A stretch of 64,000 nt of DNA from NCBI GenBank assembly GCA_964585425.1, contig CAZPDI010000001.1:4804-68803 (forward strand), in the 5' to 3' direction. Origin of the DNA: an uncultured Candidatus Saccharibacteria bacterium (GTDB lineage Bacteria; Patescibacteriota; Saccharimonadia; UBA4664; CAYXHD01). Positions 3,035-62,445 of this stretch are shown here, piece after piece. The number at the start of each line of letters is the position of its first letter. Within the stretch, counting starts at the first letter, position 1. The notes beneath the pieces are model-generated. The model was given only the letters and a program-made list of their open reading frames with translations. It was not told the DNA's origin and did no database searches. Both the position numbers and the translations under genes were made by a program.

Positions 3035-3136
3035 ATGCTTATTGTAGCAATTTGGCGACTGTTATGCGACAGTTCAGGGGAACATTTATACGAAAAATCC
3101 TTTGGGATGATCCTTGTTCAAAAAAACACTTTTTTG

Positions 3137-3191
3137 CTTATTGCAACTTTGTGGCATTAAGGGGGTCTTATCGCAACTAATTCGCAATAAG
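3137..3191. promoter_or_regulatory. Pair of 25-bp palindromic operator-like boxes (Fur/Zur-family-like)
   Basis: CTTATTGCAACTTTGTGGCATTAAG followed by CTTATCGCAACTAATTCGCAATAAG. Near-identical boxes occur at 60255-60308 next to the Fur-family gene. Confidence 0.5.
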
Positions 3192-3279
3192 CAAACAAGC
3201 CGTTTTTTAGATAGAACCCCGCCCCAGCCCCTGGCTTAAAGGCAAAAGATATGCTAGAATCTGCTAGTTACCCAACCAC

Positions 3280-3365
3280 GCGCGAGTGGTGGAATGGTAG
3301 ACACGCTGGCTTCAGGTGCCAGTGGGGGCAACCCCGTGGAGGTTCAAGTCCTCTCTCGCGCACCA
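3280..3365 (+). tRNA. tRNA-Leu (anticodon CAG)
   Basis: 7-bp acceptor stem GCGCGAG/CUCGCGC. Anticodon stem-loop CUGGC-UUCAGGU-GCCAG. Long variable arm UGGGGGCAACCCCGUG, T-arm GGUUCAAGUCC, and an encoded CCA end. Confidence 0.8.
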
Positions 3366-3380
3366 TTTATGAATATTTAG

Positions 3381-9935: not shown

Positions 9936-9977
9936 ATCACACATGTTTGAGCGTCTCTGACGCTCAGATAGAAACCC

Positions 9978-10011
9978 GACAAAGCCAACCTACTACCCCG
10001 AAAGAGGTCCC
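9978..10011. repeat. 5' box of cassette 1 (GACAAAGCCAAC..CCGAAAGAGGTCCCG)
   Basis: Repeated at 10404-10437 before cassette 2. Its reverse complement is found after each stop codon. Confidence 0.6.
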
Positions 10012-10269
10012 GTGACCAAAATCACGAACCGCAGCATCGCTCCTGCTGGCAGCATCTCCCAGATCGCTCAGCTCCACCAGGACGGAGAGATCGACCGCGA
10101 CCAGACCACTCAGGTGATCGAAGTGGTTGCGGAACATGCCGCAGAGGCGCCAAACACCTGTCCGCGCTGTCAGCGCGCCAACTGCCCAGTGACGAGGGGC
10201 GGCAACTGCCAGTTGCCAGACATGAAGGTGGTGGATCACCTGGTTCGTCAGCTGCAGACCTCCAACTGA
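10012..10269 (+). CDS. High-GC small zinc-ribbon-like protein
   Basis: GTG start 3 nt after AAAGAGG. CPRC-x4-C-x7-C cysteine arrangement. GC3 nearly 100%. Confidence 0.5.
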   Translation: MTKITNRSIAPAGSISQIAQLHQDGEIDRDQTTQVIEVVAEHAAEAPNTCPRCQRANCPVTRGGNCQLPDMKVVDHLVRQLQTSN

Positions 10270-10270
10270 T

Positions 10271-10320
10271 CTCGAGTCGGTCCTATGGGATCGAGGGGCG
10301 ACGAGGCTTGGCTTTGTCAC
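10271..10320. repeat. 3' box of cassette 1 (hairpin GGTCCtatGGGATC plus GGCTTGGCTTTGTCAC)
   Basis: The 11-bp core TTGGCTTTGTC is the reverse complement of GACAAAGCCAA in the 5' box. The extended region is an imperfect inverse of the 5' box. Confidence 0.55.
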
Positions 10321-10335
10321 CCCCTTATAAAATAG

Positions 10336-10364
10336 TTGACTTTACATGATTATTAAAGTATAGT
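10336..10364 (+). promoter_or_regulatory. Predicted sigma70 promoter for cassette 2
   Basis: TTGACT, 17-nt spacer, TATAGT, in an AT-rich spacer. Confidence 0.5.
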
Positions 10365-10403
10365 TATTGTCATGCTTGCATACGAAGTATGCGCGCACCT
10401 TAC

Positions 10404-10437
10404 GACAAAGCCAACAACTACACCGAAAGGGGTCCCG
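10404..10437. repeat. 5' box of cassette 2 (GACAAAGCCAAC..CCGAAAGGGGTCCCG)
   Basis: Copy of the 9978-10011 box, immediately before the ATG. Confidence 0.6.
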
Positions 10438-11169
10438 ATGGGATCTTCTGGAATTCTGGGGTTTCCCAAGGCTGCACACCGCGCCCCCACCATCAGCGAG
10501 GGGTACCAGGAGTACGTCGAGGAGATGACCGGCCTGGCCGTGTGCATGATCTGCGATAGCGGAACATGCCCCGGCGCCAGTGGACGCGCTTGCCCCTATG
10601 AACTCGACGTCTGCACCGTCTGCTGGCAGCTCGACTGCATTAGCGTCTTCGGTCACGACTGCCCTTCGGAGGAACGCTGCAACAACTGCGGTCACCTCCG
10701 GAACGAATTCGGCCATTACAGCAACTGCTCAATGCCCACAATGAAGCTGTGCGACGAGTGCGGGAGCGCAACCTGTCGCGTCAACCCGCCAAAGGAAATG
10801 CGAGAGGAGTACCCGTCGGACTACAATCCGTACTGGGATGACCACCACAGCATCTTCGATACGCTGGGCTGCCTCTTGGGTAGCCCGATCAGCGAGGAAG
10901 AACGGATCGCGGAAGAGATCGCATCGTGTTGGGCTCCGCGCACCGACCAGATGTCCCGAGATCGAGTACGGCAACAGATGCTGAGAACATGGATTGATCG
11001 TGATCTGGACAAAGCAGCTGAGGAAGCTCAGCAGCGCGCCGACCAGATGTCCCAGTCCATGCATCAGCTCACCGAGCTTGCGGACGACTACGACGACGGA
11101 CTGATCTCCGAGAACGTGGTTCTGATGCTCCTCCGGGCTGATCATCGCGGTGTACGGCTCTCCGGGTGA
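10438..11169 (+). CDS. High-GC cysteine-rich (multi-CxxC) protein with an acidic helical C-terminal half
   Basis: Start chosen at ATG 10438 right after the conserved 5' box. The longer 10372 start lies inside the AT-rich promoter. About 18 Cys in the first ~110 aa, in CxxC pairs. GC3 very high. Confidence 0.5.
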   Translation: MGSSGILGFPKAAHRAPTISEGYQEYVEEMTGLAVCMICDSGTCPGASGRACPYELDVCTVCWQLDCISVFGHDCPSEERCNNCGHLRNEFGHYSNCSMPTMKLCDECGSATCRVNPPKEMREEYPSDYNPYWDDHHSIFDTLGCLLGSPISEEERIAEEIASCWAPRTDQMSRDRVRQQMLRTWIDRDLDKAAEEAQQRADQMSQSMHQLTELADDYDDGLISENVVLMLLRADHRGVRLSG

Positions 11170-11209
11170 CCTTTGAGGGTCGGTGAGCGTCAAGGCTTGG
11201 CTTTGTCAC
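11168..11209. repeat. 3' box of cassette 2 (hairpin GACCtttgagGGTC plus GGCTTGGCTTTGTCAC)
   Basis: Same 16-nt core as 10305-10320, inverse of the 5' box. Confidence 0.55.
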
Positions 11210-11275
11210 TCACCTAAGTGTATATACACGATAAATACATTTAGGTGAGTATTATTAAGATAAACACAACTTCTA

Positions 11276-11304
11276 TTGACAAATAGGGTTTAGTTTGCTA
11301 TACT
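11276..11304 (+). promoter_or_regulatory. Predicted sigma70 promoter for cassette 3
   Basis: TTGACA, 17-nt spacer, TATACT. Confidence 0.5.
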
Positions 11305-11365
11305 TATGCGCAATCTGGTGGAACACCCATCCGATAGAACACAGACCACAACCCAAGGAAAGCCC

Positions 11366-12103
11366 ATGTCTCAGCTCGTCATCGTCCAGGGCCCCAAGCC
11401 CCGCACGTCCGCGGTGTCCGACAAGGATGCCCACAACCTCCGCCTCCAGGCGGACAAGGTGCTGGCCAGGCACCGCGGTGATCTCCCCCAGGAGATCGTC
11501 ACGCAGCTGACCAGCCCGATGCCCGGCATCGTGGGCATGGGACTGCACGACGCGGCCTCCTGGATCAAGCAGCGCACCGCCAACCTCAAGCTGCAGTACG
11601 TGCAGCAGCACCCCGACTGCGAGGCGGCCATGGCCCTCAAGACCCGAGTCGACAACGTCCTCAACGGCGAGTTCGGCGACAAGGTCAAAAAGAGCCTCGA
11701 CATGCGTGGTCAGCGCATCCTCGAGCTGGACCTGTACCAGATCTTGAGCACCGACCAGCTGAAGAGCTTCGCCCACTTCGTCAAGAAGGCCGAGGCAGTC
11801 GAGGGTCGCTTGCAGACCGAGAAGGCACGCAAGGCGGTGCCGGCCCAATCGCTCCAGATGCTGTTCCCGTCCAAGGAGAAGCGCGAGCGCAAGCCGAAGA
11901 AGGTCAAGCCGGCCTACGCCGGTCTCCCCGCACCGTCCACCGGGATCGTCACCGACTGGAAGAGCGACGTCGGCAGCGTCGGTGCCCCGAACCCCCAGGG
12001 TCCGGCGCCGGCACGCGGCGTCACCCTCCGCAAGTCCGACAAGGCTCGCGCCAAGGGAGTGAAGGGTGGTGGCGTCAAGACCCGTCCGGGGCGACGCAAC
12101 TGA
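11366..12103 (+). CDS. High-GC hypothetical protein with a lysine/arginine-rich C-terminal tail
   Basis: AAGGAAAG RBS. GC3 about 95% in this frame. The antisense ORF 11273..12130 is rejected as a GC artefact. C-terminal tail reads KEKRERKPKKVK...KARAKGVKGGGVKTRPGRRN. Confidence 0.5.
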   Translation: MSQLVIVQGPKPRTSAVSDKDAHNLRLQADKVLARHRGDLPQEIVTQLTSPMPGIVGMGLHDAASWIKQRTANLKLQYVQQHPDCEAAMALKTRVDNVLNGEFGDKVKKSLDMRGQRILELDLYQILSTDQLKSFAHFVKKAEAVEGRLQTEKARKAVPAQSLQMLFPSKEKRERKPKKVKPAYAGLPAPSTGIVTDWKSDVGSVGAPNPQGPAPARGVTLRKSDKARAKGVKGGGVKTRPGRRN

Positions 12104-39977: not shown

Positions 39978-40006
39978 TTGCATTATGTCGCAAAATATGA
40001 TTAAAT
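39978..40006 (+). promoter_or_regulatory. Predicted promoter of module 1
   Basis: TTGCAT, 17-nt spacer, TTAAAT. The TGATTAAAT block recurs in the 40688 promoter. Confidence 0.35.
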
Positions 40007-40040
40007 AGTATGGTTCTGCTACCTATCCCTAAGGATTCCA

Positions 40041-40415
40041 ATGAATGCACCTGCCCGTCCCATGCCCGACATCACCGATGTGGAGCTGACCAAGAAGATC
40101 ATCGATGAACGTGTGAAGCACCACAACCTGCGCCATGAAGATGGTGAAGCGATCTGGATGGTAGTCACGGCCATCGGTCATGCCATCAAGATCGGTGATC
40201 CTCAGTACAGCCCGATGATCGACCGCAACGTCACGGGGCTGCGCAACGAGGCGAGGCCAGGCGAAGTTCCGGTCATCTTGCTGTCCGACCTGAACCGCAT
40301 CTTCTGTGACGACACGTTGATACGCGAGCTGCAGCGGGTGTTCCCGAGCATCGTCAATGATGCGGCGCGCGTTGCCTGCTGGAAGTTCCGCAACTGCATG
40401 TACGGATGCGACTGA
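40041..40415 (+). CDS. High-GC hypothetical protein (124 aa), module 1 gene A
   Basis: TAAGGAT RBS. GC3 high. No family recognised. Confidence 0.45.
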   Translation: MNAPARPMPDITDVELTKKIIDERVKHHNLRHEDGEAIWMVVTAIGHAIKIGDPQYSPMIDRNVTGLRNEARPGEVPVILLSDLNRIFCDDTLIRELQRVFPSIVNDAARVACWKFRNCMYGCD

Positions 40416-40417
40416 TC

Positions 40418-40627
40418 ATGCGCCTTCGGATCCCCTGGCGCAAGCAAACCGTGCCGCCGCCACCCGCGACTGTCGCGATGAAGGCTGCGCCCCTGGTGCC
40501 GCCACCTCATCGCCGGATGACGGCCGAAGAACGCGCTGCGTGCTGCCAAGATCAGAGGAAGATCAAGCTGCGTGCTGCCAAGCGTTGTCGGCGCAAGGCC
40601 CGAAAGCGCCGACTGCGCAACAAGTAA
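40418..40627 (+). CDS. Pro-rich/basic small protein, paralog 1 (alternative start 40406)
   Basis: GACTGATCATG junction with the upstream gene is conserved in paralog 42234..42467. Differences between the paralogs are often synonymous in this frame. Confidence 0.5.
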   Translation: MRLRIPWRKQTVPPPPATVAMKAAPLVPPPHRRMTAEERAACCQDQRKIKLRAAKRCRRKARKRRLRNK

Positions 40628-40645
40628 CCCCCGTGAGGCGGATCG

Positions 40646-40680
40646 CCGAAAGGTCCCTCTTGCGGGGGATCTTTCGTTAT
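40646..40680 (+). terminator. Family hairpin GAAAGGTCCC-tcttgcg-GGGGATCTTTC plus GTTAT
   Basis: 9-bp stem including G-U pairs, with a U-rich tail. Confidence 0.5.
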
Positions 40681-40687
40681 GGTGATA

Positions 40688-40716
40688 TTGATTTATACCT
40701 GTAAATGTGATTAAAT
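40688..40716 (+). promoter_or_regulatory. Predicted promoter of unit 2
   Basis: TTGATT, 17-nt spacer, TTAAAT. AAAGGAGAG RBS follows. Confidence 0.35.
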
Positions 40717-40750
40717 TTCCCTATTCCGTTTCGAGTCCAAAGGAGAGACC

Positions 40751-40984
40751 ATGACGGACGCACATGCCACGGCCGTCTCCACGGTCTATTTTTGGCTCGA
40801 GTACGAGTTGGGTATCGATAATCCTGATCACGTTGAACTGACCATGATTATCGAGAATGGCTGGCTGCGCTATCGGTGCCCGGCCCACGACATCACCCCG
40901 CTTGAAATCGCCCGCCTCGAAGCTGCCTGCCGGCACCACGCCCATTCTCTTGAAGTGCACCTGAACCTGGAGGTTCAATCATGA
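40751..40984 (+). CDS. High-GC small hypothetical protein (77 aa)
   Basis: AAGGAGAG RBS. ATGA overlap with the next gene. Confidence 0.4.
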   Translation: MTDAHATAVSTVYFWLEYELGIDNPDHVELTMIIENGWLRYRCPAHDITPLEIARLEAACRHHAHSLEVHLNLEVQS

Positions 40985-41733
40985 TTGTCCACAAGCACGA
41001 CATCGATACCGCAGCTCGTCTGGCCGCCAAAGAGCGGTTCATGAACGAGTCATGGCTGGATGATCGCAAGGTGCGATCATGGTTCGCTTGGCTCGGTATC
41101 CGTCCTGACGGTCATCAAGCATTGCGCATCTTGCGCGCTGTGCATGCCACGGCTGCCACCGTGCGTGAGTACAAGATCCACCATCGCCACACGCGCTTCG
41201 GTCGAACGATGCGCCTGCAGCGCCGGCTCCCACCGTGGCCCGCCAAGTACGCGGATACCCCGGTCATCAATGCCGCGCAGATGCTGCTGGTGACTCAGCG
41301 CACGGACTACATCCACCTCACGGAGCTGACGCGACCAATTACGGGTACCAGTTATCGGCACGGCGACAATCGACGCGTCGATATGGAAACGTGCAAGATG
41401 TTCCTGGAGAACGTGCAGAGCAAGTTCATGCGCGAAGCCGTTTGGTCAGATGAGTTGGTATGTATCGAGAGCTTTGCGCGGCTCGGCCTGACGCCCGATG
41501 AGCTGCTGGTGGCCGAGATGGCTCTGATCCGTCTGATGAGTAGGTATCGGCACGAAAAGGGGCTTACCTGGTATCTGATGCCGACCTATGGCAGCCGGAG
41601 CCGCCGCTTGCACACCCTCACCATGGGTGATTTCTTGAACATCACCCGATTTCTCCAACCCAACTATGGCGACACCGACATGGAGTTTCTCATGACGCTG
41701 GCCGATCGTCTGCGTTCGCGACTTGCGACCTGA
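40981..41733 (+). CDS. High-GC hypothetical protein (250 aa)
   Basis: GC3 high. Translationally coupled to the preceding ORF. No family recognised. Confidence 0.45.
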   Translation: MIVHKHDIDTAARLAAKERFMNESWLDDRKVRSWFAWLGIRPDGHQALRILRAVHATAATVREYKIHHRHTRFGRTMRLQRRLPPWPAKYADTPVINAAQMLLVTQRTDYIHLTELTRPITGTSYRHGDNRRVDMETCKMFLENVQSKFMREAVWSDELVCIESFARLGLTPDELLVAEMALIRLMSRYRHEKGLTWYLMPTYGSRSRRLHTLTMGDFLNITRFLQPNYGDTDMEFLMTLADRLRSRLAT

Positions 41734-41764
41734 TCTCGACACATACCCTCGCGGGGGCTTTTCT

Positions 41765-41798
41765 ACGGAAAGGTCCCTGCGGGGGATCTTTCGTTTAT
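41765..41798 (+). terminator. Family hairpin ACGGAAAGGTCCC-TGCGG-GGGATCTTTCG plus TTTAT
   Basis: Near-identical copy at 42492-42525. Confidence 0.55.
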
Positions 41799-41801
41799 AG
41801 C

Positions 41802-41830
41802 TTGCAATATCAATACTTTAAATGTATAAT
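41802..41830 (+). promoter_or_regulatory. Predicted sigma70 promoter of module 2
   Basis: TTGCAA, 17-nt spacer, TATAAT. AAGGAG RBS at 41849. Confidence 0.5.
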
Positions 41831-41859
41831 TTGTAAATCCGTACGACCAAGGAGTACCC

Positions 41860-42231
41860 TTGACCGAAGCCAATACCCTACCCAAGGCCGATGCCAGCGT
41901 CAAGCTGTCCGACGACATCATCGCAAGCTGCTACGAGGGCTGCGATCCCCGTGAGTCCGATCGAGCTCGCGGCTGCATCGCCGCCCTCAAGGACCTGCTA
42001 CGGCTCGCCGAGAAGACGCCGAACGACGCGCGCTACCAGGAGATCCGGGAGTTCGACGCCGACACCCTGACCGTTGGCCAGTTCATCACCCTGATGTACC
42101 TGCCGGCGATGTCGCCGAATCAGCCCCGCCAGCTGATGCGCAACGTGCGTAGCAACTGGGGGCGACTCAACCAGCGAGTTCTCATCGAGCTGCGAGACAA
42201 GCTGGATGAGCGCTACGAGCCCCAGGACTGA
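41860..42231 (+). CDS. High-GC hypothetical protein (123 aa), module 2 gene A
   Basis: TTG start 6 nt after AAGGAG. GC3 high. Not similar to 40041..40415. Confidence 0.45.
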   Translation: MTEANTLPKADASVKLSDDIIASCYEGCDPRESDRARGCIAALKDLLRLAEKTPNDARYQEIREFDADTLTVGQFITLMYLPAMSPNQPRQLMRNVRSNWGRLNQRVLIELRDKLDERYEPQD

Positions 42232-42233
42232 TC

Positions 42234-42467
42234 ATGGGCATCTGGAACTCTCGGCGCAAGAAGACGACACCACCGCCACCTCCTCCTGCACCTCCTCCGC
42301 CGCCCGCGGCTGTCGCGATGAAGACTGCACCACTGGCGCCGCCACCGCGTCGCCGAATGACGGCCGAAGAACGCGCCGCTCTCAAGCTGCCCAAAGTGAA
42401 GGCCCGGCAGCGCCTGGCCAAGAACCGACGCGCCAAGGTCAGGAAGCGCAAGCACAAGAAGTCCTGA
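42234..42467 (+). CDS. Pro-rich/basic small protein, paralog 2
   Basis: PPPPPPAPPPPPAAVAMKTAPLAPPPRRRMTAEERAA plus a K/R-rich tail. About 85% nucleotide identity to the 40418 paralog in the central part. Confidence 0.5.
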   Translation: MGIWNSRRKKTTPPPPPPAPPPPPAAVAMKTAPLAPPPRRRMTAEERAALKLPKVKARQRLAKNRRAKVRKRKHKKS

Positions 42468-42491
42468 TCGCGCCCCTGTGGGGACTTTTCT

Positions 42492-42525
42492 ACGGAAAGG
42501 TCCCTGCGGGGGATCTTTCGTTTTT
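42492..42525 (+). terminator. Family hairpin plus T5
   Basis: ACGGAAAGGTCCCTGCGGGGGATCTTTCGTTTTT. Confidence 0.55.
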
Positions 42526-42603
42526 AAATGAGAAAGACCCAGGATTTCTCCTAGGTCTAGGGGCCAGGGATTCGACTACCCTGCACCCCCATCCACAACC
42601 TGT

Positions 42604-43035
42604 TCACGCCTGCATATCAGGCGGCAAGGTGAAGGCGTCAGGGTACGAGATGACCAGATCATTATCGTTCAACGGATAGATCGCGCCCCAGTCCGTAAGC
42701 ACGAACCGTTCGCAGAACGTCTGATCCACAGCACGAGCATACGCTGGTATATCACGCAGATCGTCTTTCGTCAGCTCTTGCCCCCAGTAAAAGGTCCCTT
42801 TGTCATGAGAGTTGTGAGTAACGACCTTGTCATCAGGACATATGAATGTGTAGATCTCTGTGAAATCAAAGCCGATAGCCCCTTGCTGGTGCTTAACCCC
42901 GAGAGGGTCACGGCCTGCCGTGACGATGGCATCAACTCGAGACAACACGCCAGTCGGGTATATGTAGCGAGCCACCAACAACTTGGTGGCGACCACGTCG
43001 ATGTGCTTGGTCTGGCTTTCACCCTCGGTATCCAT
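42604..43035 (-). CDS. Hypothetical protein
   Basis: 143-aa ORF. No family recognised. Confidence 0.3.
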   Translation of the reverse strand: MDTEGESQTKHIDVVATKLLVARYIYPTGVLSRVDAIVTAGRDPLGVKHQQGAIGFDFTEIYTFICPDDKVVTHNSHDKGTFYWGQELTKDDLRDIPAYARAVDQTFCERFVLTDWGAIYPLNDNDLVISYPDAFTLPPDMQA

Positions 43036-49188: not shown

Positions 49189-50709
49189 TTAGCTAAACAA
49201 ACTCGGTTGCGTGCCGGCAGTTCCCCTGGTTATTTCATCGAGCACTTCGTAAATGCGCACCATGGCCAAGGTATCGAGCGCACAATAGACCAGCAAATCA
49301 TCGAAAACCTTTTGCGCCTCATCGGCCGGCATGTCGCCAAACACCGCACGCATGTATGAACCTTGGGCATCACCACCATTTTGAATACCAAGTTCTTTAT
49401 AGCTTAAATCAGGTGCCAACACTGGTAGGACATTTTTAATACTGGCACTGCCCATAAAACGGGAGTCAACATAGAGCTGTTGCTGGAAGGGATCGATGAG
49501 ATCAACCACACGAGCATTTAGATCAAGCAAGAAGTCGGCGTGCTCCGGGAACATCTCGGCCATTTCGCTGTGGCGCCCGCATTCGAACGCTTTATACCAT
49601 ACGGCGATACTACCAGTAGGGCCAATATCGCGCTTGAGCTGCTCAATGAGTGGCGGCATGGGATTACTCTGCTCCGTCCATAAAAATTCGGTGTGACGCA
49701 ACTCTTGGCCCGGCGCATCAAGAATATGCAAACTGTACTGCATAGGAATTTGCTGATACGGCTTGGTGCCGTCGTATAGTGGCACCGCATCGGCCGCCGT
49801 TTCGTAATCTAAAAAGTAAATTGGGAATTGGATGGTTTGCATAAATTTAGCGATGGCTGGGGCGTCGATGCGCACCTCTCCACTCTTGGTGGTAGCGATT
49901 TGCATTTGCTGAGCCGGCGCCAGCGTACTAATAATCTCCGCGGGTACGTCTTGGATTTTAGTAACTCCGGCGGCCTCCAGCTGCTCAATAAGTTTTGGAT
50001 TCAACCGAGCGAGATTAAGGATGCTGTCAGTCGGCACTTCGCCTTTGAGTTTCTTGTAAATAGGCATCCAATCAAAATAGCCACCATAACTTGCCAGTCG
50101 CGGTGACAAGCTTGGACAATCCGGACTTAGAATCACGTCAAAGGCTTCTTGGACTTTAGCGTCCATGGCCAACATTGTATTATGTACGTCATCAGTCACA
50201 TCGGTGATGCTAGTGAGAGCCATAACATCGATATCACCATTCCGCACATACTGACCATTAACATGGACCACGGCAGTTTTGCGCACCCGATAGCCGCAAG
50301 CCTCTATGGTACGCTTTTGGAATGCCAGATCCCAGGTGTGATCCGGCTTGGCTTTGGTACTAACTTTAATTTCATAAATATCAAACTCATCACCGCCGAC
50401 GCGAACCATGACATCGGTTAAGCAAGCCGTGTTATCAGGCGCCGTGAATTTGGCCTGAAATAATGTTTGAGCGCCAGTCGCCAATAAACGCGCCGTGACT
50501 CGATCCTTTTCGAAGTAATCACCAGTGATGCGTTGACCATCACTAAACAGTTGCTCGGCAAGAGCTTCGAAGCGAAAGCCCATATCAAAAAGAGCTTGGG
50601 TATTAGCATCAATCGGCGGCAGCTTATTGGGCTCAAACTTTTTAAGCCACAACCAAGCCGGGTGTTTTAAAAATACCATAAAGTCAGATTTAGAAAGTTG
50701 ACGTGCCAT
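49189..50709 (-). CDS. DUF2779-like predicted nuclease (PD-(D/E)xK plus RNase-H-like exonuclease domains)
   Basis: DIYEIKVSTK (D..E.K motif). C-terminal FLDYETA...CALDTLAMVRIYEVL. Confidence 0.5.
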   Translation of the reverse strand: MARQLSKSDFMVFLKHPAWLWLKKFEPNKLPPIDANTQALFDMGFRFEALAEQLFSDGQRITGDYFEKDRVTARLLATGAQTLFQAKFTAPDNTACLTDVMVRVGGDEFDIYEIKVSTKAKPDHTWDLAFQKRTIEACGYRVRKTAVVHVNGQYVRNGDIDVMALTSITDVTDDVHNTMLAMDAKVQEAFDVILSPDCPSLSPRLASYGGYFDWMPIYKKLKGEVPTDSILNLARLNPKLIEQLEAAGVTKIQDVPAEIISTLAPAQQMQIATTKSGEVRIDAPAIAKFMQTIQFPIYFLDYETAADAVPLYDGTKPYQQIPMQYSLHILDAPGQELRHTEFLWTEQSNPMPPLIEQLKRDIGPTGSIAVWYKAFECGRHSEMAEMFPEHADFLLDLNARVVDLIDPFQQQLYVDSRFMGSASIKNVLPVLAPDLSYKELGIQNGGDAQGSYMRAVFGDMPADEAQKVFDDLLVYCALDTLAMVRIYEVLDEITRGTAGTQPSLFS

Positions 50710-50789
50710 GTTATTAGTATAGCAGTGGGAGCACCTAGGTTAAAAACAACTTTTCTGGTTATTGCGACTAATTCGCAGTAAGTAAAAAT

Positions 50790-54688: not shown

Positions 54689-55771
54689 CTACCCTGTCCA
54701 GCGCTGACGCTGCAGATCCTCTACCTGCCAACGCAACGTTTGTCCCGCCCGGAATGGCACCACCCCGCCGATCTCTTCAGGCACAGCCCAGGGGATCCTC
54801 GACAACAACACATAATTGTCGTCTTGTGGGGGCTCGACGCCGTAGAACTTGCAACCAGCAATGGAGACAAACTGCTCCAGCCTCTCCGGCCAGTCCTCCA
54901 GACCACTGTCCTCGAACAGTTCCGCCAGCACCGGCAGAGCAACTGGTCCGGAATACACGCCGTTGTTAGGCTTTGCCTTCAGCTTGTCCTCGATTCGATG
55001 AGGCGCCGAGTCGCTACCGAAGAAGATCTTGGGCGGATCACCCGGCTTGACACTGAGCATCGCAGCCAAGATGGCTTGACGATCTTCCTCGGTCTTGGCT
55101 CGCGGCAAACAGGCATGATGCGGCTGATCGATGACACCATCGTGCTCAACGTCATTAATGGTCAAGCATGGATGATGAGCCGTGATGGTGGCAGCGACGT
55201 TGGCCGGCAGCTCCATGATGAGGTTGATGGCATCGGCAGAAGAGACGTGCTCGAAGACGATTCGCAGACCCGGGAATGCCTCATGCACCTCCATGAACAG
55301 CTCGAGGAACATCTGCTCAGCATGAGCGAGATCGTCGGTTGAGACTTCGCCGTGCACGTTAAGCACGACATCAAGCTCCTGCATCACTTCAAATACTGGC
55401 CACCCGTCGTGGATATCCCGCAAACCAAAACCCGAATGAGTCGTGGTGTTGTACGGATAATACTTGACCGAACAGAATCCGTTGCGACGTTCGTACATCA
55501 GACGGATGATCGCTTCATCAGTGTCTGGCGTGAGGTACAAGGTCGGCCACAAGTTCACCATGTTCAGGCCTTTCAGCCCTGCCTGCACCTCTTGCAGATA
55601 GTGGAACGCATGCATAGCGTCACTTACTGGCACCGGGTTGAGGTTTGGCATGAGCAAGGCGTAATGGAGATGACCAATGCTGGGACGAACAACATCTTTC
55701 AGCAGACGTCCTTGACGAACATGAACGTGCCAATCGCTCGGACGACGCATCTTGAGTGCCAAGTAGGGCAT
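54689..55771 (-). CDS. pyrC: Dihydroorotase, type II (E. coli-like homodimeric form)
   Basis: LKMRRPSDWHVHVRQG, LMPNLNPVPV, KYYPYNTTTHSGFG, VHGEV, RIVFEHVSS, AATITAHH, FFGSDSAPH, VVPFRAGQTLRWQV all align with E. coli PyrC. High GC. Confidence 0.85.
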   Translation of the reverse strand: MPYLALKMRRPSDWHVHVRQGRLLKDVVRPSIGHLHYALLMPNLNPVPVSDAMHAFHYLQEVQAGLKGLNMVNLWPTLYLTPDTDEAIIRLMYERRNGFCSVKYYPYNTTTHSGFGLRDIHDGWPVFEVMQELDVVLNVHGEVSTDDLAHAEQMFLELFMEVHEAFPGLRIVFEHVSSADAINLIMELPANVAATITAHHPCLTINDVEHDGVIDQPHHACLPRAKTEEDRQAILAAMLSVKPGDPPKIFFGSDSAPHRIEDKLKAKPNNGVYSGPVALPVLAELFEDSGLEDWPERLEQFVSIAGCKFYGVEPPQDDNYVLLSRIPWAVPEEIGGVVPFRAGQTLRWQVEDLQRQRWTG

Positions 55772-55807
55772 GGTGAGTCCTTTCGGGACGTTGTGAGTGA
55801 ACGAACA

Positions 55808-55827
55808 AAGGTGTGCCTAAGCACACC
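55808..55827. promoter_or_regulatory. Perfect palindrome AGGTGTGC-CTAA-GCACACCT in the pyrC leader
   Basis: 8-bp arms. Lies between the pyrC start and the pyrE terminator. Confidence 0.3.
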
Positions 55828-55871
55828 TCCATAACCATTACTATACACTATTATTCATAAATTGCGAGCGT

Positions 55872-55901
55872 CTGGGCCAGGGGAACTCTCCCCCGGCCCA
55901 G
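55872..55901 (-). terminator. Hairpin downstream of pyrE, preceded on the plus strand by TTCATAAATTGCGAGC
   Basis: CTGGGCCAGGGG ... CCCCGGCCCAG inverted repeat. Confidence 0.45.
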
Positions 55902-55923
55902 CGCGAACCGTTGAATACGGGGC

Positions 55924-56583
55924 TCAGGCTGCGAGTAACTGGACCCAGCCACCCTCGTACTGCGGGTTGACCTCATCGCGGTAGTGGGCACCGTGACCCA
56001 GCGCACCATCGACAACAATGGGCTTGCCAGCTTCACAGAGCGGACAAGCTTCGGCGTCGTAGGACGCGAAGTCCACGTGCGTCAGCTGCTCCAACCGGGG
56101 AACTCCGATGGCGTCAGCCTCCACACCGCCTCGGTTGCAGACGGCACTGATGCCGATCACCTCACCACCACAGGCTTCGATGGCCGCGCAGGTGCCCTGA
56201 ACCGAACTGCCAGTGGTCAGCAGATCCTCGATCACGAGAACGCGTTTGTTCTGCAGGTGCTGCGGGAAGCTCAGGCGATCGACCACGAAGTTGTTGCCCT
56301 CCTTGTCGGCCCACAGGCCAGGCACACGAAGACCCTTCTTGTGCAGTAGCCAGTTCGAGGCAGTGCTGGTGAGCGCCACGCCACCGGTTGCCGGTGATGC
56401 GACAACATCGAAACCGCCGTCGAATGGTCTGAGGAGATCCGAGACGATCTGGCTGAGCATCACTGGATCAGCGAAGATCGGGTCCATGCAGATGTAGCCC
56501 TCACCGTGTCCACCCTTCTTGTACACGAAGTGGTTGTCGAGAAAGACGGCTCCGACCTTCTGGAGGTACTCGAGAATGTCCAT
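55924..56583 (-). CDS. pyrE: Orotate phosphoribosyltransferase
   Basis: Start taken at MDILEY (TAGGAACG RBS). PRPP-binding motif VLVIEDLLTTGSS. High GC. Confidence 0.7.
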   Translation of the reverse strand: MDILEYLQKVGAVFLDNHFVYKKGGHGEGYICMDPIFADPVMLSQIVSDLLRPFDGGFDVVASPATGGVALTSTASNWLLHKKGLRVPGLWADKEGNNFVVDRLSFPQHLQNKRVLVIEDLLTTGSSVQGTCAAIEACGGEVIGISAVCNRGGVEADAIGVPRLEQLTHVDFASYDAEACPLCEAGKPIVVDGALGHGAHYRDEVNPQYEGGWVQLLAA

Positions 56584-56666
56584 GTGCGTTCCTAACGTGA
56601 GACGAATGCGCCAACTGGTCACATCCGAATTATTATCCTATTCATAAAAGTTATTTACAAGCATAA

Positions 56667-56734
56667 GTGTGTCGCCGGACGGGTGGGCAAAAAGTTTACA
56701 GTCCGAAGACCTTCTTCCTCCTCGCCCACCCGTC
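56667..56734 (-). terminator. Long-loop hairpin downstream of pyrF
   Basis: GGACGGGTGGGC ... GCCCACCCGTCC 12-bp arms. Confidence 0.35.
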
Positions 56735-56742
56735 CGAGCATG

Positions 56743-57675
56743 TCAGGCCGCCAGGCGAACTCGCTCGATGGTCTCGTGCATGTTGGAGGCCTCAGCTTCC
56801 GACGCCTCAGCCGGAGCCAGACCCTCGTACTGCTGGTTGTCGTGAGCATGGGTGATGCCGCTCGAGGAGTTGATGGCGATGCCAGCCTGCTGGCTGTTGT
56901 GTCCGTTCTGGTAGGCGGCTGCAGCGTCACCGCCCTGCTTGTTTCCTACCCCAGGGATCAGGATCGGAACCTGCTCGCCAACACAACGACGAACGTTGGC
57001 AAGGTCGTCGATGGACTCGGGACTTGCGCCGGCCACCACACCGACGTTGCCTCGCTTGTTCCAGCCCTCCAGGCTGGCGACGTTCTGTGCGACTCGCTCG
57101 TACAGGAAGCCCTCCATAGTCACGCCCATGAGGGTTGACGAGCAGGTATCAAGCTTCTGGAACTCCTCGGCGCCAGGGTTGGATGTACGAGTCAGTACGA
57201 AGACCCCCTTGTCGCCACGGTCCAGCCACGGGGCCATGGCCTGTGCACCCATGTAGTTGTGGACGGTGACTGCATCAGCTCCGCAGACGTCGTAGGCGAA
57301 CGAGGCGTAGGTGTCATTGGTCGCTCCGATGTCGCCGGCCTTGAGGTCAAGGATCTTGACGACATCTGGCGCGTGGGTACGCATGTGCTTGAAGAGCAAC
57401 TCCAATGCCTGGATGCCTTCATGGCCATGCTTGAGGTAGAACCCCAAGTTGGGTTTCATCCAGCCGACTTTGCCGGCCAGGGCCTCGACGATCGGGAACA
57501 AGAAGGTGGTGAGCGTACCGCAGATGCTGGCCCGCTGGAAGCCCTCCGGGATGCGTGTGATCACCGGATCATCCTCGCGATAGGTGCTCTTGAGCGTTGG
57601 GTCGAGACCGGCGCAGACTGCACGGTGCTGCCCGGCGTTCAAGGCCACGAGCTCCGAAAAGCTGAGGTCGGACAT
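56743..57675 (-). CDS. pyrF: Orotidine-5'-phosphate decarboxylase, type 2 (long form)
   Basis: Start taken at MSDLSF after GGAGAGGAG. VCAGLDP and DLKAGDIGATN (type-2 D.K.GDIG.T motif). High GC. Confidence 0.7.
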   Translation of the reverse strand: MSDLSFSELVALNAGQHRAVCAGLDPTLKSTYREDDPVITRIPEGFQRASICGTLTTFLFPIVEALAGKVGWMKPNLGFYLKHGHEGIQALELLFKHMRTHAPDVVKILDLKAGDIGATNDTYASFAYDVCGADAVTVHNYMGAQAMAPWLDRGDKGVFVLTRTSNPGAEEFQKLDTCSSTLMGVTMEGFLYERVAQNVASLEGWNKRGNVGVVAGASPESIDDLANVRRCVGEQVPILIPGVGNKQGGDAAAAYQNGHNSQQAGIAINSSSGITHAHDNQQYEGLAPAEASEAEASNMHETIERVRLAA

Positions 57676-57778
57676 GTCAGACTCCTCTCCCATCTGACGA
57701 TGAGATAGATTCGTGCGACCGAATTAGCCACATCCATATTAGTATGGTTTCTGGGACGCTTAAGAGCAAGCGTAAGAG

Positions 57779-58597
57779 TTATTTACTGCGCAACCGTGCG
57801 ATGACAAAGCGAGCGAGGAAGTAAATGAGGAAGCTAAGGAATGTTACAAAAACACTTGGCTTAATAGTTCCGCTGGCTAAGCTCAGGAGTACACCCCCAG
57901 CTCCGGCAACGAAGGCAAAGCCAACGGAAAGACTAGCGACCATGGCGGGTCTGGCCGATAAACGCATAGCGGCAGCGGCTGGTGTAATGGCTAAACTTAA
58001 GACGAGTAGGGTGCCGACGATTTGGGCCGCGGCAGTTACGGTCAGCGCCAAGAGGATCAAGAACGCTATACCAAGCGCACGAACTGGCACGCCACGAGCA
58101 GCGGCGACCTGCGGGTCAATCGAAGCAAACTGTAATGGTCGATACATAATAATGAGGCCCACGATGACGAGCACACAAATTCCTATTAAGAATCCGAGTT
58201 GCGTGGCACTTACGCCATATACATTACCAAAGAGGATGTTGGTCGCCGCGGTGGCGAAGCCACGATAATAACTCAGGAACAACACGCCAAGCCCAAGCCC
58301 AAAGGCCAAGATGACGCCAATGGATGAATCACGTTCTTTTTCACGCACGCCAAGTAAACCGATTGATACGGCGACGATAAGTGCGCCAATAATTGAGCCA
58401 AGCGGCGCATTATTGAGGAACAATAGTCCGGCGGCCGCACCAGTAAAGGCCAGTTCGCTAATGCCATGCACCGCAAACGCCATGCTGCGACGAATCACAA
58501 AAGGGCCCACCAGACCACAAATCATGGCAATGATGGTTGCCGCCAATAAAGCGTGTTGCGCAAAGGGCTGACCTAAATAGAATAGGAAGTTATTCAT
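57779..58597 (-). CDS. Metal (Zn/Mn) ABC transporter permease (ABC-3 / ZnuB-TroCD family)
   Basis: Start taken at MNNFLF, which overlaps the ATPase stop. About 8 TM helices. Confidence 0.7.
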   Translation of the reverse strand: MNNFLFYLGQPFAQHALLAATIIAMICGLVGPFVIRRSMAFAVHGISELAFTGAAAGLLFLNNAPLGSIIGALIVAVSIGLLGVREKERDSSIGVILAFGLGLGVLFLSYYRGFATAATNILFGNVYGVSATQLGFLIGICVLVIVGLIIMYRPLQFASIDPQVAAARGVPVRALGIAFLILLALTVTAAAQIVGTLLVLSLAITPAAAAMRLSARPAMVASLSVGFAFVAGAGGVLLSLASGTIKPSVFVTFLSFLIYFLARFVIARLRSK

Positions 58598-59330
58598 GAT
58601 GCCCTCCCAGTGCCTCGGCGTGTAAACTATCTTCGGCGCCAAGCACCACCATGCGACCGTGGATATTGAGCACTTCGACGGGTGAGCCATACAGCTTACT
58701 CAGGGTCTTAGTTGTCAGGATTTCCTCAGGCGTGCCTAGCAACCACTTCTGCCCCACTAAATATAAAACCTTATCAACCATTGGCAGAATCGGATTAATG
58801 TCGTGCGTCACAAATACCACCGCCGTATTATGTTTGGTACGACGTTCATTAATGAGATTGCTGACGATTTGCTGTTGCGTTAAATCGAGCGAAAGCAGCG
58901 GCTCGTCACATAGCAAAATACTTGGATCTTCAACTAAGGCCTGGGCCACACGCAATCGCTGTTGCTGACCACCACTCAGGGTGCCGAGCGGTTTGTGCGC
59001 AAACTCTTCGGCACCGACGGCTTTAATTGCCTTATCGACGGCCGTCTTCTTGCCTAAGCCTACACCATACTTATGGCCATCTAAACCAAATCGCACTAAG
59101 TCGTAGCCGCGAATGGCGGTGTCATCATCAAAGCCACGGTGCTGCGGAATGTAGCCAATACACTGATCGGCGTGATTTTCTAACAGGCGTTTTAACAAGC
59201 TCGTCTTGCCCGACCCGTTTGGCCCCAGCACCACCAAAAACTCACCGGGCTCTATATTAAGATTAAGATTTTGCCAAAGCTTATGCTCGCCAAATTGCAA
59301 GCTAACGTTCTTTAAGGAAATGAGACTCAT
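58590..59330 (-). CDS. Metal ABC transporter ATP-binding protein
   Basis: Walker A GPNGSGKTS, signature LSGGQQQR, Walker B LLCDEP. Confidence 0.85.
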   Translation of the reverse strand: MSLISLKNVSLQFGEHKLWQNLNLNIEPGEFLVVLGPNGSGKTSLLKRLLENHADQCIGYIPQHRGFDDDTAIRGYDLVRFGLDGHKYGVGLGKKTAVDKAIKAVGAEEFAHKPLGTLSGGQQQRLRVAQALVEDPSILLCDEPLLSLDLTQQQIVSNLINERRTKHNTAVVFVTHDINPILPMVDKVLYLVGQKWLLGTPEEILTTKTLSKLYGSPVEVLNIHGRMVVLGAEDSLHAEALGGHHE

Positions 59331-60244
59331 AATGCCCCTAGTATGGCACTAAGTTGTTGCATTTGCCAGGTCTGAAAGTTCTTAACCTTGGGAATCGTTT
59401 CGCTGACCCCTACTACCGCTACGCCGGCTTGCTGGGCAGTCTTTTGCAACTGCTCCGTGACATCATTTACCGCCTGATTGTTATAGAGGAGTACTTTTAC
59501 CTGCCCCGACTTTAATACTGCTTCGAATGCTTGTATTTGCTGTGGGGTTGGCTCACTGCCGTTTTCGACCGATTGCGAAAAGCCAGTCGGAGTTTTGTCG
59601 GTCAAACCAAGATCCTCGATCAAATAGCCGGCCACTCGTTCGGTATAGGCCACGCCGCCATTCACCTGAGTAATTTTGCTGGTTAATTTTTGCATATCGG
59701 CAATAAAGTTTTGAGTGTTTGCCTTATAGCTGATCTCGTGCTCTGGGTCAATTGCAATCAGGTCATTCTGGATGGCTAAGGCCACCTCCTGGATGCGCGG
59801 CAGATCATACCAGAGATGCGGGTTATCATCCTGGTTGGATTTAAGAACTTCGCTGACATTGAGTATTGTTTTATCATTTTGTGGAGCCGCCTCTAAGAGC
59901 TTGTCCATAAACTCGTCGTAGCCCAGACCATTAACTATGATGAGCTGGGCAGATCCTAGCTGCGAGGCAGTTTTAGCGTCGGACTCAAATAAGTGCGGAT
60001 CAGCTTCGGGGTCGCTTAATATAGAAGTAACTTCGACATGCTCGCCACCTACCTGGGCCGCAATATCACCCCAAACGTTGGTGCTCGCAACGATTTGAAC
60101 TTTATTACTATCGTGCGCAACTTGATTCTTTGACTGCAAATATACCACCCCCCATATAAAGAATAGGGCCGATATAAGCATGGCGGCGCCGAGAGCAAAT
60201 GTTCGTTTTTTCGATATATGTGACATGTCTTTAAAATAAAACAC
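59327..60244 (-). CDS. Metal ABC transporter substrate-binding protein (TroA/ZnuA cluster-9 family)
   Basis: N-terminal TM/signal region. TroA-like fold length. ATGA overlap with the ATPase. Confidence 0.7.
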   Translation of the reverse strand: MFYFKDMSHISKKRTFALGAAMLISALFFIWGVVYLQSKNQVAHDSNKVQIVASTNVWGDIAAQVGGEHVEVTSILSDPEADPHLFESDAKTASQLGSAQLIIVNGLGYDEFMDKLLEAAPQNDKTILNVSEVLKSNQDDNPHLWYDLPRIQEVALAIQNDLIAIDPEHEISYKANTQNFIADMQKLTSKITQVNGGVAYTERVAGYLIEDLGLTDKTPTGFSQSVENGSEPTPQQIQAFEAVLKSGQVKVLLYNNQAVNDVTEQLQKTAQQAGVAVVGVSETIPKVKNFQTWQMQQLSAILGAL

Positions 60245-60254
60245 CTTTTTGCTT

Positions 60255-60308
60255 ATTGCAAATTTGTCGCATTAGTGATATCTTATTGCAACAAAGTCGC
60301 ATTAACGA
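60255..60308. promoter_or_regulatory. Pair of palindromic operator-like boxes in the divergent intergenic region
   Basis: CTTATTGCAAATTTGTCGCATTAG and CTTATTGCAACAAAGTCGCATTAA. Consensus CTTATTGCAAnnnnGTnGCATTA is shared with 3137-3191. Confidence 0.5.
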
Positions 60309-60321
60309 AAGATTAATAAAA

Positions 60322-60765
60322 ATGAAGTCGGACCTACACGTCTACCTCTTAAATCATAAAAAACGCTTAACTCCCTCTAAGGAGCTCGTTTTTGAGCTAC
60401 TCAATAATCACCAGGCAATTACAATCAATGAGCTCTATTCCAAAGTTTCGAAGCAGATGGACAGGGCGACCATGTACCGTATCCTGCAACAATTTTATGA
60501 GCTTAAAGTTATTAAGGACGTAGTTATAAATGGCGTACGCAAGATTGAGTTAGCCGACTACTTTAACAGCCATCACCATCATTTAATTTGCGGCAGATGT
60601 GGCAACGTAGTAAACATTAACGACATGAAACTTGAGCAATACCTTAAGCGGCTTGCTCTCGTTAATAAATTTGTGCATGTATCACATAGTTTTGAAATTG
60701 TCGGTCTATGCCCCACTTGCCGACCACAACCTACCGCTGACTTGCCTTGGGCGGGCGTAGAATAA
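60322..60765 (+). CDS. Fur-family metal-responsive regulator (likely Zur)
   Basis: Start taken at MKSDLH. HHHLICGRCG and CPTC metal-site motifs. Winged helix. Confidence 0.7.
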   Translation: MKSDLHVYLLNHKKRLTPSKELVFELLNNHQAITINELYSKVSKQMDRATMYRILQQFYELKVIKDVVINGVRKIELADYFNSHHHHLICGRCGNVVNINDMKLEQYLKRLALVNKFVHVSHSFEIVGLCPTCRPQPTADLPWAGVE

Positions 60766-61513
60766 GTATACTAGTACGCTTCTTGTATTCTTTATAAGCA
60801 GGGTTACTTCCCCACTTTTTATCGGCGGATTTCTCTAATATGGGTATCCCCGAAGCAAAGATAAGTGTGCCGGCAATGGCCAGGGGGCTGATTAAACCTA
60901 TGAGTCTTTCAAGATTTGTAAGCGATACGAAGAGCGTGATGTACATACCAACCCATACCGTGATTTCACCAAAATAGTTTGGATGACGTGACCAGCTCCA
61001 CAAGCCCTCTTGGATCCATTTGCCTTTATTCTTTGCGTTCTGGGTAAACCGAAACTTTTGTATGTCGGCTACCGCTTCTACAACAAAGCCAAAGGCCCAG
61101 ATTAAGAATCCGAGGACTGCCACGTAACCCAAGGTGACATTGGTTTTTTGGAGCGCAAACAATAATGGCAGCAAGACCACCCAGGCAACGATGGCCTGGA
61201 GCACCCAAAAGCGGCCGAGTAACCAAAAGCTATTGCGCCAGGCATCAAAGCGCTGATCACGGCCAGTTTTTTGGATGCGATACAGCAAGAAGCCACCCAG
61301 TCGGAATGCCCAAACAGCCACCATACCGGTCACCAATAAACGCTGCAAGGTTGCATCACCGCTCAAGTAACCAAACATAGCTAAGACAAAAAAGCTCAGA
61401 GCGTAAGCCGCGTCGGTCAATTTATCGGTCTTAAATGTATAGGCGATTAAAAATAAAACAATGTTGATTCCGAGCGAATAAAGCAGGGCATTGAGTAAAT
61501 AGTATGATGTCAT
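60731..61513 (-). CDS. DUF1295 membrane protein (steroid 5-alpha-reductase / ICMT-like)
   Basis: Multi-TM. WSWSRHPNYFGE motif. Confidence 0.6.
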   Translation of the reverse strand: MTSYYLLNALLYSLGINIVLFLIAYTFKTDKLTDAAYALSFFVLAMFGYLSGDATLQRLLVTGMVAVWAFRLGGFLLYRIQKTGRDQRFDAWRNSFWLLGRFWVLQAIVAWVVLLPLLFALQKTNVTLGYVAVLGFLIWAFGFVVEAVADIQKFRFTQNAKNKGKWIQEGLWSWSRHPNYFGEITVWVGMYITLFVSLTNLERLIGLISPLAIAGTLIFASGIPILEKSADKKWGSNPAYKEYKKRTSILILRPPKASQR

Positions 61514-61549
61514 AATTGCAGTTTACCATAAGTAGGTTACAATGAAGAT

Positions 61550-61948
61550 ATGGAATTTATAAAACTCTACGTACTAAGCTTTTTGTGCTTCTTGGGCCTC
61601 GACTCGTTATGGCTAACTAAGGTTTCGCCAAAACTCTATAAAGAACAAATTGGCCACCTGATGGCCGACAAGCCTAACCTAGGAGCGGCTGGACTTTTTT
61701 ATCTGATCTATATTACCGGGCTGGTTGTTTTTGTAGTGCAGCCAGCCGTACAAAAAGAATCAATTATGTATGCCGCCAGCCGCGGCGCATTGTTTGGGTT
61801 GGTCGCCTATGCCACCTTTGACCTTACAAGTTTAGCGGTTCTTAAAAACTGGCCGGTCAAGATAACGGTAATTGACCTCATTTGGGGATCGGTACTAACT
61901 GCCAGCGTCTGTGCCCTGGCCAGCTTCTTAGCCTTACGCGTTAAATAG
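61550..61948 (+). CDS. DUF2177-like small membrane protein
   Basis: Four TM helices. Weak family recollection. Confidence 0.35.
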   Translation: MEFIKLYVLSFLCFLGLDSLWLTKVSPKLYKEQIGHLMADKPNLGAAGLFYLIYITGLVVFVVQPAVQKESIMYAASRGALFGLVAYATFDLTSLAVLKNWPVKITVIDLIWGSVLTASVCALASFLALRVK

Positions 61949-61956
61949 GACCAACT

Positions 61957-62445
61957 ATGGAGATTGCCAAGAACCAATATATCCGCACCATCATCTTTGC
62001 GGTCGAAGACAGCTTGGTTTCGACCACCGGCCTGATTGCCGGTATTAGCGTCGGCGTCAACAACAAGGCCGTGGTCATCGTGAGCGGTATCGTGGCTATT
62101 GCCGTAGAGGCCATCAGTATGGGTGCCAGTCAGTATATTAGCGATGACGCCATCGAGCAAGCCATTAAAAAGCGTGGTGACAGCCAAGCGTTTAAGGATG
62201 GGCTTCTTATGCTGGCCTCGTACTTTGCAGCCGGCCTCATCCCGCTCCTGCCAGTGGTGTTCTTTACCTATCCAACATCCCTTTACTTTTCGGTGCTCTT
62301 CGCCCTGGTGGGCTTAATAATTCTGGGTTATGTAAAAAGCAGGGTGCTACGCACCAACCCCCTACGTGGTGCCGTAAAAGTCGTCGTAGTTGGTGGTTTA
62401 GCCACCATACTCGGCATCATCGTTGGGCTTATCTTTAAGATTTAA
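61957..62445 (+). CDS. VIT1/CCC1-family membrane protein
   Basis: FAVEDSLVSTTGLIAGIS N-terminus typical of short bacterial VIT proteins. Confidence 0.55.
   Translation: MEIAKNQYIRTIIFAVEDSLVSTTGLIAGISVGVNNKAVVIVSGIVAIAVEAISMGASQYISDDAIEQAIKKRGDSQAFKDGLLMLASYFAAGLIPLLPVVFFTYPTSLYFSVLFALVGLIILGYVKSRVLRTNPLRGAVKVVVVGGLATILGIIVGLIFKI

Follow-up and report, generated by a model that had tools for sequence, protein, structure and literature searches.

The window, by which we mean the whole stretch of 64,000 nt of Candidatus Saccharibacteria DNA that was analysed, carries a metal-importer operon and, divergently oriented from it, a gene for a Fur-family regulator (fur in the following). The features of this locus are listed below.

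57779-58597, minus strand: ABC-3 family permease of the importer (profile match).
58590-59330, minus strand: ABC transporter ATPase of the importer (profile match).
59327-60226, minus strand: ZnuA/TroA-family (cluster A-I) metal-binding protein (E = 5.6e-52), first gene of the importer operon.
60253-60275, no strand: Box 1, TTATTGCAAATTTGTCGCATTAG, an imperfect palindrome of 23 bp (6 of 11 pairs complementary), with TTGCAA within its left half.
60283-60305, no strand: Box 2, TTATTGCAACAAAGTCGCATTAA, an imperfect palindrome of 23 bp (8 of 11 pairs complementary), placed exactly 30 bp downstream of the first box.
60322-60765, plus strand: Fur-family regulator of 147 aa (Pfam FUR, E = 4.7e-18).

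The gap between the start of the binding-protein gene (60226, minus strand) and the start of fur (60322, plus strand) is 95 bp long and contains two copies of a direct repeat (60252-60281 and 60282-60311) whose starts are 30 bp apart. Paired 24-mers of the two copies are identical at 19 of 24 positions and differ in all four central bases, as expected for a spacer separating two half-sites. The original prediction had placed two boxes between a metal-binding protein gene and a Fur-family gene. Both sequences it quoted were found and both flanking genes were confirmed; the interval it gave, 60255-60308, lies 3 nt too far to the right. The dyad symmetry it described is real though imperfect. Precisely, at least 8 of 11 complementary pairs, as in Box 2, are reached by 0.17% of all the 23-mers in the 64 kb, and at least 6, as in Box 1, by about 4%. 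Box 1 is hence a weak palindrome, and the constraint on its left half may come from a function as -35 element, considered below, rather than from the regulator.

As regards the regulator, its invariant residues include two CxxC motifs, an HHHH run (84-87), E105 and H122. Only 13 relatives of it, at 56-70% identity, were detectable in a large protein collection, and the genomes in which a scan located relatives are metagenome-assembled ones of Candidatus Saccharibacteria and Patescibacteria. The 64-kb window contains no second Fur paralogue.

Some further observations concern the neighbourhood. Downstream of fur (60731-62445) there are genes for a DUF1295 protein, a DUF2177 protein and a member of the VIT1 family (a Fe/Mn transporter family), in an order kept in the related loci L001, L002 and L009; in L008 the DUF1295 gene is beside fur, the DUF2177 gene is elsewhere and the VIT1 gene is absent from the locus. 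No boxes were found before these three genes. Heliorhodopsin and short-chain dehydrogenase genes lie directly downstream of fur in L002 (10418-11975), L051 (305-1831) and L052 (998-2553), and this insert is absent from the window. The window also has three GC-rich islands (0.55-0.60, versus a background of about 0.47) at 10001-12000, 40001-43000 and 55001-58000, which could reflect gene-specific composition or horizontal transfer. The last one spans the genes for OMP decarboxylase and a phosphoribosyltransferase-domain protein, probably pyrF and pyrE, and adjoins the importer operon, which is lower in GC.

Box sites in the window and in related genomes

We searched the window with the pattern CTTATTGCAANNNNGTCGCATTA, allowing at most 3 mismatches, and obtained five matches, versus 0.02 expected from shuffled sequences. 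When these five sites were made into a position weight matrix, a scan of the 64 kb at a score of at least 8 bits returned the same five only; this indicates the lack of further sites and is no independent test of the five, from which the matrix itself had been built. When the spacer was varied between 8 and 14 nt, an excess was present at 11 nt only (7 matches versus 2.1 expected), all the other spacers giving chance values; the 7 matches are the five boxes, one overlap artefact and one unrelated match. The five boxes are AT-rich dyads with from 6 to 9 of 11 complementary pairs each, and TG (positions 5-6) and CA (positions 18-19) are present in 5/5 sites; the two boxes of the fur/importer gap have the layout AATG/ATTG-N11-CATT. 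The window has many other promoters, and the full 23-bp motif is absent from them.

The original prediction had named two outcomes that would speak against it, namely a motif occurring at dozens of sites unrelated to metal genes and boxes belonging to a repeat element. We found five sites at three loci in the 64-kb window, and the positions of these three loci are conserved in relatives. The sites outside the fur/importer gap, with their flanking genes, are the following.

1403-3034, minus strand: FAD-linked oxidase gene.
3138-3160 and 3168-3190, no strand: second tandem pair, 30 bp apart, between the oxidase gene and tRNA-Leu(CAG).
3280-3365, plus strand: tRNA-Leu(CAG).
49189-50709, minus strand: DUF2779 gene, with candidate leaderless promoter TGCTATACT-N6-ATG.
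50759-50781, no strand: single box, the best palindrome that the window contains, with 9 of 11 pairs; its centre lies about 61 bp before the DUF2779 start codon.

Neither the DUF2779 locus nor the FAD-oxidase/tRNA-Leu locus has an obvious link with metals. At the same place upstream of the DUF2779 gene there are two boxes in L002 and at least one in L008, and the pair at 3138-3190, kept in L054 and L056, is lacking in L055.

For the fur/importer locus itself, we compared eight close orthologous loci (the window, L001, L002, L008, L009, L010, L052 and L053). The divergent arrangement of importer and fur, together with two boxes 30 bp apart, was present in all eight loci with a readable intergenic region, and the core comprising promoters and boxes could be aligned across them with no gap. 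The columns that do not vary are TTGCAA, within the left half of Box 1, the TG and the CA in each of the two boxes, and the TA in two hexamers resembling a -10 element.

As more distant relatives we considered 16 genomes of Saccharibacteria/Patescibacteria with Fur homologues 24-39% identical and with readable sequence upstream of the gene; L013, in which only 5 nt of upstream sequence are available, stands outside this count. The pattern TTGCAA-N5-TTGCAA (at most 1 mismatch) was found in 15 of the 16, at most about 100 bp before fur, L035 being the genome with no such box upstream of fur, whereas about 0.9 matches would be expected by chance over all the 398 kb scanned. Usually there is one box, lying over the -35 element and the spacer of a promoter whose -10 resembles TATAAT and whose ATG is leaderless. 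The genes around it vary. The divergent neighbour of fur is a ZnuABC-type operon in L012 and a His-rich membrane transporter in L014, L018, L019, L024 and L025, whose motifs, HHHHEH and HEIPxE among them, suggest to us a ZIP-like protein; in L050 fur is followed, on its own strand, by ZnuABC-type genes. Whatever the neighbours, the fur homologue is the only gene that always accompanies the box, and such a constant partner is the usual signature of an autoregulated factor acting on its own site.

Other matches to the same pattern, at L024 8943, L019 9080 and L024 10337, lie within coding sequence and were set aside as probably due to chance or codon-driven. The last of them (L024 10337-10353) is a perfect TTGCAA-N5-TTGCAA within fur, made of the codons of the conserved ELQGIC, and probably coincidental. 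In L018, just downstream of fur, a second good box (CTTACTGCAACAAAATTGCAATAA, 2932-2948) is followed by a TATACT -10 and precedes an ORF of 116 aa (3061-3411), a possible extra member of the regulon.

Concerted change, promoter model and competing readings

The boxes of the close relatives are not identical in sequence, and the way in which they differ bears on what recognises them. Box 1 has TTATTGCAA as its left half throughout, and the remaining three half-sites vary from genome to genome, with four types seen (TGCGA, TGCCA, TGACA and TGAGA). The following half-sites were read in individual loci.

TAATGCGA: the window and L053.
TAATGCCA: L001 and L009.
TAATGACA: L002.
TAATGAGA: L052.

Positions 7-8 of the half-sites are identical within a genome in 56% of the pairs, versus 18% in shuffled data, and none of 5000 shuffles reached the observed value. 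In the genome to which both L002 and L054 belong (the two loci come from a single 130-kb contig) the TGACA type is present at three unlinked loci, that is, at fur, at the DUF2779 gene and at the FAD-oxidase gene. A change shared in this way by the boxes, including those at three unlinked loci, points to one trans-acting factor: neither a promoter element nor an RNA stem needs such a concert, whereas a single DNA-binding protein with drifting specificity would.

The regulator has itself diverged quickly: genomes that share 82-92% identity in the FAD oxidase share only 56-70% in the regulator, and when the window is compared with the genome of L002, the values are 89% for the oxidase and 59% for the regulator. 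Its residue 49 (Ala or Thr) tracks the half-site type, with Thr accompanying the TGCCA-containing boxes in L001, L009 and L010. This residue immediately precedes an invariant T50-x-Y52-R53 stretch, which is presumably the recognition helix.

The two boxes of the gap overlap the elements from which we infer the following promoter positions.

60233-60238, minus strand: candidate -10 of the importer (TATTTT), separated by 17 bp from TTGCAA and by 6 nt from the ATG of the binding protein.
60256-60261, no strand: TTGCAA, candidate -35 for both divergent promoters, self-complementary and invariant in 8/8 orthologues.
60276-60284, plus strand: candidate extended -10 of fur (TGA TATCTT), 17 bp after TTGCAA.

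Being self-complementary, TTGCAA can serve both strands, and it is unchanged in all the eight orthologues even where the remaining half-sites differ. The importer -10 column reads TATTTT, TATTGT or TATCGT in 8/8 orthologues; the fur -10 column reads TAnnnT in 8/8, with the TGn extension in 7/8; both -35/-10 spacings hold in 8/8. The predicted start of fur transcription falls near 60291, within Box 2, and a weak ribosome-binding site lies before the fur ATG. On the importer side, the placement of the -10 only 6 nt before the ATG implies, if the assignment is right, a leaderless mRNA, with a predicted start at 60226 (minus strand), the A of that ATG. A generic promoter/terminator scan returned no promoter here, the candidate hexamers scoring 8/12 versus a threshold of 9, and hence the promoter model rests on conservation instead. 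The elements are also of a kind that recurs in these genomes. At many genes, namely 75 long ORFs in the window plus 8 loci, a TAnnnT hexamer is located 5-8 nt before the ATG (for example at 61535-61549 and 3035-3047 in the window, and also in the loci L001-L056), so that leaderless mRNAs seem to be common in this Saccharibacteria clade. A G two bases before the hexamer, which gives a TGn-extended -10, is present in 41 of the 75, and the clade -35 consensus is TTG(A/C)(C/A)A, which TTGCAA fits.

We propose that the metal-loaded regulator binds, as a dimer, to each 23-bp dyad, described as TTAWTGC-N9-GCAWTAA. Box 1 would overlap the palindromic TTGCAA acting as -35 common to two back-to-back promoters, the importer promoter being composed of -35, 17 bp, TATTTT, 6 nt and ATG, and the fur promoter of -35, 17 bp and TGnTATCTT, while Box 2 would sit over the -10/+1 region of fur. 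Occupancy of the boxes would block RNA polymerase at both promoters, and the outcome would be a metal-dependent repression of uptake together with negative autoregulation. The strict spacing of 30 bp would put two dimers on nearly the same face of DNA, and their binding may be cooperative. Such a placement of the boxes would correspond to the classic geometry of repression by occlusion and of negative autoregulation. We consider it likely that the boxes are the operator through which the adjacent Fur-family metal-sensing repressor controls its own gene and the importer, as the original prediction had suggested; in favour of this are the fur-linked boxes in relatives and the overlap with the predicted promoters of both genes.

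The boxes could instead be bound by another transcription factor, encoded elsewhere and having fur and the importer among its targets. Such a factor would account for the motif being found also at the DUF2779 gene and in the FAD-oxidase/tRNA-Leu gap, where no metal function is evident, and for the window boxes having only 10-11 of 18 positions in common with the classical Fur consensus. We judge it improbable, since the fur homologue is the constant companion of the box, in all eight of the close relatives and in 15 of 16 distant genomes, no other regulator gene is consistently adjacent, and the L002-type box agrees with the Fur consensus at 16 of 18 positions.

According to a second alternative, the repeats would be core promoter elements only, i.e. 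-35-like TTGCAA/TCGCAT sequences with A/T-rich flanks, and no dedicated repressor would be involved. The fit of TTGCAA to the clade -35 consensus and the invariance of the left half of Box 1 across genomes are in line with it. So is the promoter of the FAD oxidase (3035-3075, minus strand), strongly conserved as GTCGCATAA-N-TACAAT-AAGCAT-ATG and found in L054, L055 and L056 around 9960-10000, whose -35 resembles a half-site. This -35 stays the same in the L054 genome, with no change to TGACA, and hence it is probably a sigma-factor element and not a site for the regulator. Promoter function would not explain why the three half-sites other than the -35 change together in each genome with their dyad symmetry preserved, why full boxes exist at 3138-3190, where no promoter is recognisable, or why many other promoters of the window do without the 23-bp motif. 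We regard this second alternative as quite improbable.

It is very improbable that the boxes belong to a small repeat scattered over the genome or to a mobile element, or that they encode a hairpin in the leader RNA of fur: the segment 3117-3191 is indeed about 80% identical to the control region 60231-60306 over about 75 bp, and symmetry is kept through changes on both arms as in an RNA stem, but there are only three loci in 64 kb, at the same positions in relatives, the similarity stops just outside the boxes (about 20 nt), an Rfam search of 59900-60700 matched no family, Box 1 would be untranscribed under either inferred promoter, and the inferred fur start would cut the left arm of Box 2, which in the window makes a poor hairpin.

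Coming back to the operator reading, in the copied segment 3117-3191 the boxes are kept and both -10 elements have decayed. The pair at 3138-3190 lies about 115 and 145 bp from the leaderless promoter of the oxidase and about 90 and 120 bp from the tRNA promoter. With boxes about 90-145 bp from the nearest predicted starts, or near -61 as at the DUF2779 gene, simple occlusion does not fit these sites. Activation, an architectural role or titration are possible for the pair at 3138-3190 and for the site at 50759; activation by Zur has been described at zitB (PMC6103462).

Known Fur-family operators, the metal and the meaning of the locus

Operators of the Fur family are AT-rich dyads of 15-23 bp, in a 7-1-7 or TG-N11-CA layout, and the classical Fur box is described in 7-1-7 and 19-bp forms. 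Its consensus, AATGATAATnATTATCATT, and TG-N11-CA as a shared feature are given in PMC1698941. The boxes resemble it in being AT-rich dyads with TG-N11-CA, in adjoining a gene of the cognate family and in lying over predicted core promoter elements. They differ from it in the half-site core, which in the window is TGC(G/A)A and not TGATAA, and in the conserved flanks, with which the site reaches 23 bp. In the window boxes only 10-11 of 18 positions agree with the consensus, while in the orthologous L002 box, TTAATGACAATAATTGTCATTAA, the 19-bp core matches it at 16 of 18. The Fur/Zur-box-like form claimed for the boxes was thus borne out by the TG-N11-CA layout and by this orthologous box.

Paired Zur boxes over the -35 and the -10 are known from znuA of S. 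coelicolor and yciC of B. subtilis, and 23-bp palindromic Zur boxes are documented (PMC6103462). The present locus is similar in having two boxes per promoter over -35 and -10/+1 (here as predicted), a ZnuABC-type target and a divergent or adjacent regulator gene. It is unlike these systems in that the third ligand of the binding protein is Glu and not His, the spacing of 30 bp is strictly fixed and one palindromic -35 appears to be common to both promoters; moreover, the regulator of the window has Asp79 where the Zur of S. coelicolor has Cys79.

Mur is a Mn-responsive Fur homologue of alpha-proteobacteria, with MRS sites upstream of sitABCD and mntH, and mur and sit are often adjacent (PMC1698941). 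As in the Mur system, a Fur homologue is linked here to an ABC importer whose binding protein is of the same family, the sites include a 19-bp palindrome related to the Fur box, and the carboxylate and His sensing residues of the regulator, together with the Glu-type binding protein, would fit a Mn/Fe sensor. Unlike Mur, the regulator belongs to another phylum and in sequence is no closer to Mur than to Fur, Zur or PerR; against the Mur of R. leguminosarum (5fd5) the E value was 6e-5, versus 1.5e-11 against the Zur of M. tuberculosis.

Sequence comparison leaves the subfamily of the regulator similarly balanced, the NCBIfam equivalogs being far below their cut-offs and the matches to solved Fur, PerR and Zur structures nearly tied. 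In the gap-free alignment to the Zur of S. coelicolor (3mwm), C90, C93, C130, C133, H84-H87, E105 and H122 are kept in the regulator, and D79 stands opposite C79, with D or E at this position in 13/13 homologues. We take the sensing site of that Zur to be D65, C79, H85 and H87, with Cys79 as the sensing Cys; a Cys ligand of this type is lacking in our regulator, which has D79 in its place. Of the Fur/Zur-family assignment made in the original prediction, the Fur-family part stands (Pfam FUR). PerR, whose five-ligand site consists of H37, D85, H91, H93 and D104, is unlikely: in the alignment to 2fe3 there is N98 at the D104 position, and the targets found are metal importers, with no catalase or peroxidase genes.

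As to the metal, in our judgement, which is not a calculation, the choice is roughly even between Zn and Mn/Fe. Zn is pointed to by the best NCBIfam matches of all three importer parts, which are AztABC or ZnuABC, all below the curated cut-offs, and by the neighbours of fur in relatives that appear ZIP-like from sequence motifs. Mn/Fe is pointed to by the D79 of the regulator, opposite the sensing Cys of Zur, by the Glu of the binding protein (in YTERVAGY), which aligns to the Mn-ligand Glu of S. aureus MntC and replaces the His carried by Zn-specific proteins, and by the VIT1-family gene just downstream of fur in conserved synteny. The targets of Zur are zinc importers (ZnuABC with a three-His binding protein, or ZIP/ZupT), zinc-free ribosomal protein paralogues and COG0523 proteins; of the last two kinds the 64-kb window showed none.

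Taken at this level, the locus is very probably a conventional Fur-family control circuit in a little-studied lineage, the Saccharibacteria; full-text searches of the literature returned no paper on Fur, Zur, promoter structure or leaderless promoters in this group. Judging from the sequences compared, added interest may come from the two boxes in strict phase, the palindromic -35 that both promoters appear to use, the putative leaderless importer mRNA and the fast concerted drift of operator and regulator. A more ambitious reading, which we hold only tentatively and think rather doubtful, is that within one clade regulator and operators co-evolve at an unusually high speed and that the distal sites serve activation or DNA architecture and not occlusion. 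If this were true, the protein would have, within a reduced genome, the role of a small global regulator.

Gene regulation in Saccharibacteria and in the other candidate-phyla-radiation bacteria is almost uncharted, and the locus supplies a testable regulator-operator pair, with a defined 23-bp motif and a promoter model. The likely minimal regulon consists of the importer, the regulator itself, the DUF2779 gene and the FAD-oxidase region. The locus could anchor both the reconstruction of the regulon and work on the metal physiology of these epibionts, and the related loci offer a compact natural series for studying the drift of the Fur-family recognition code.
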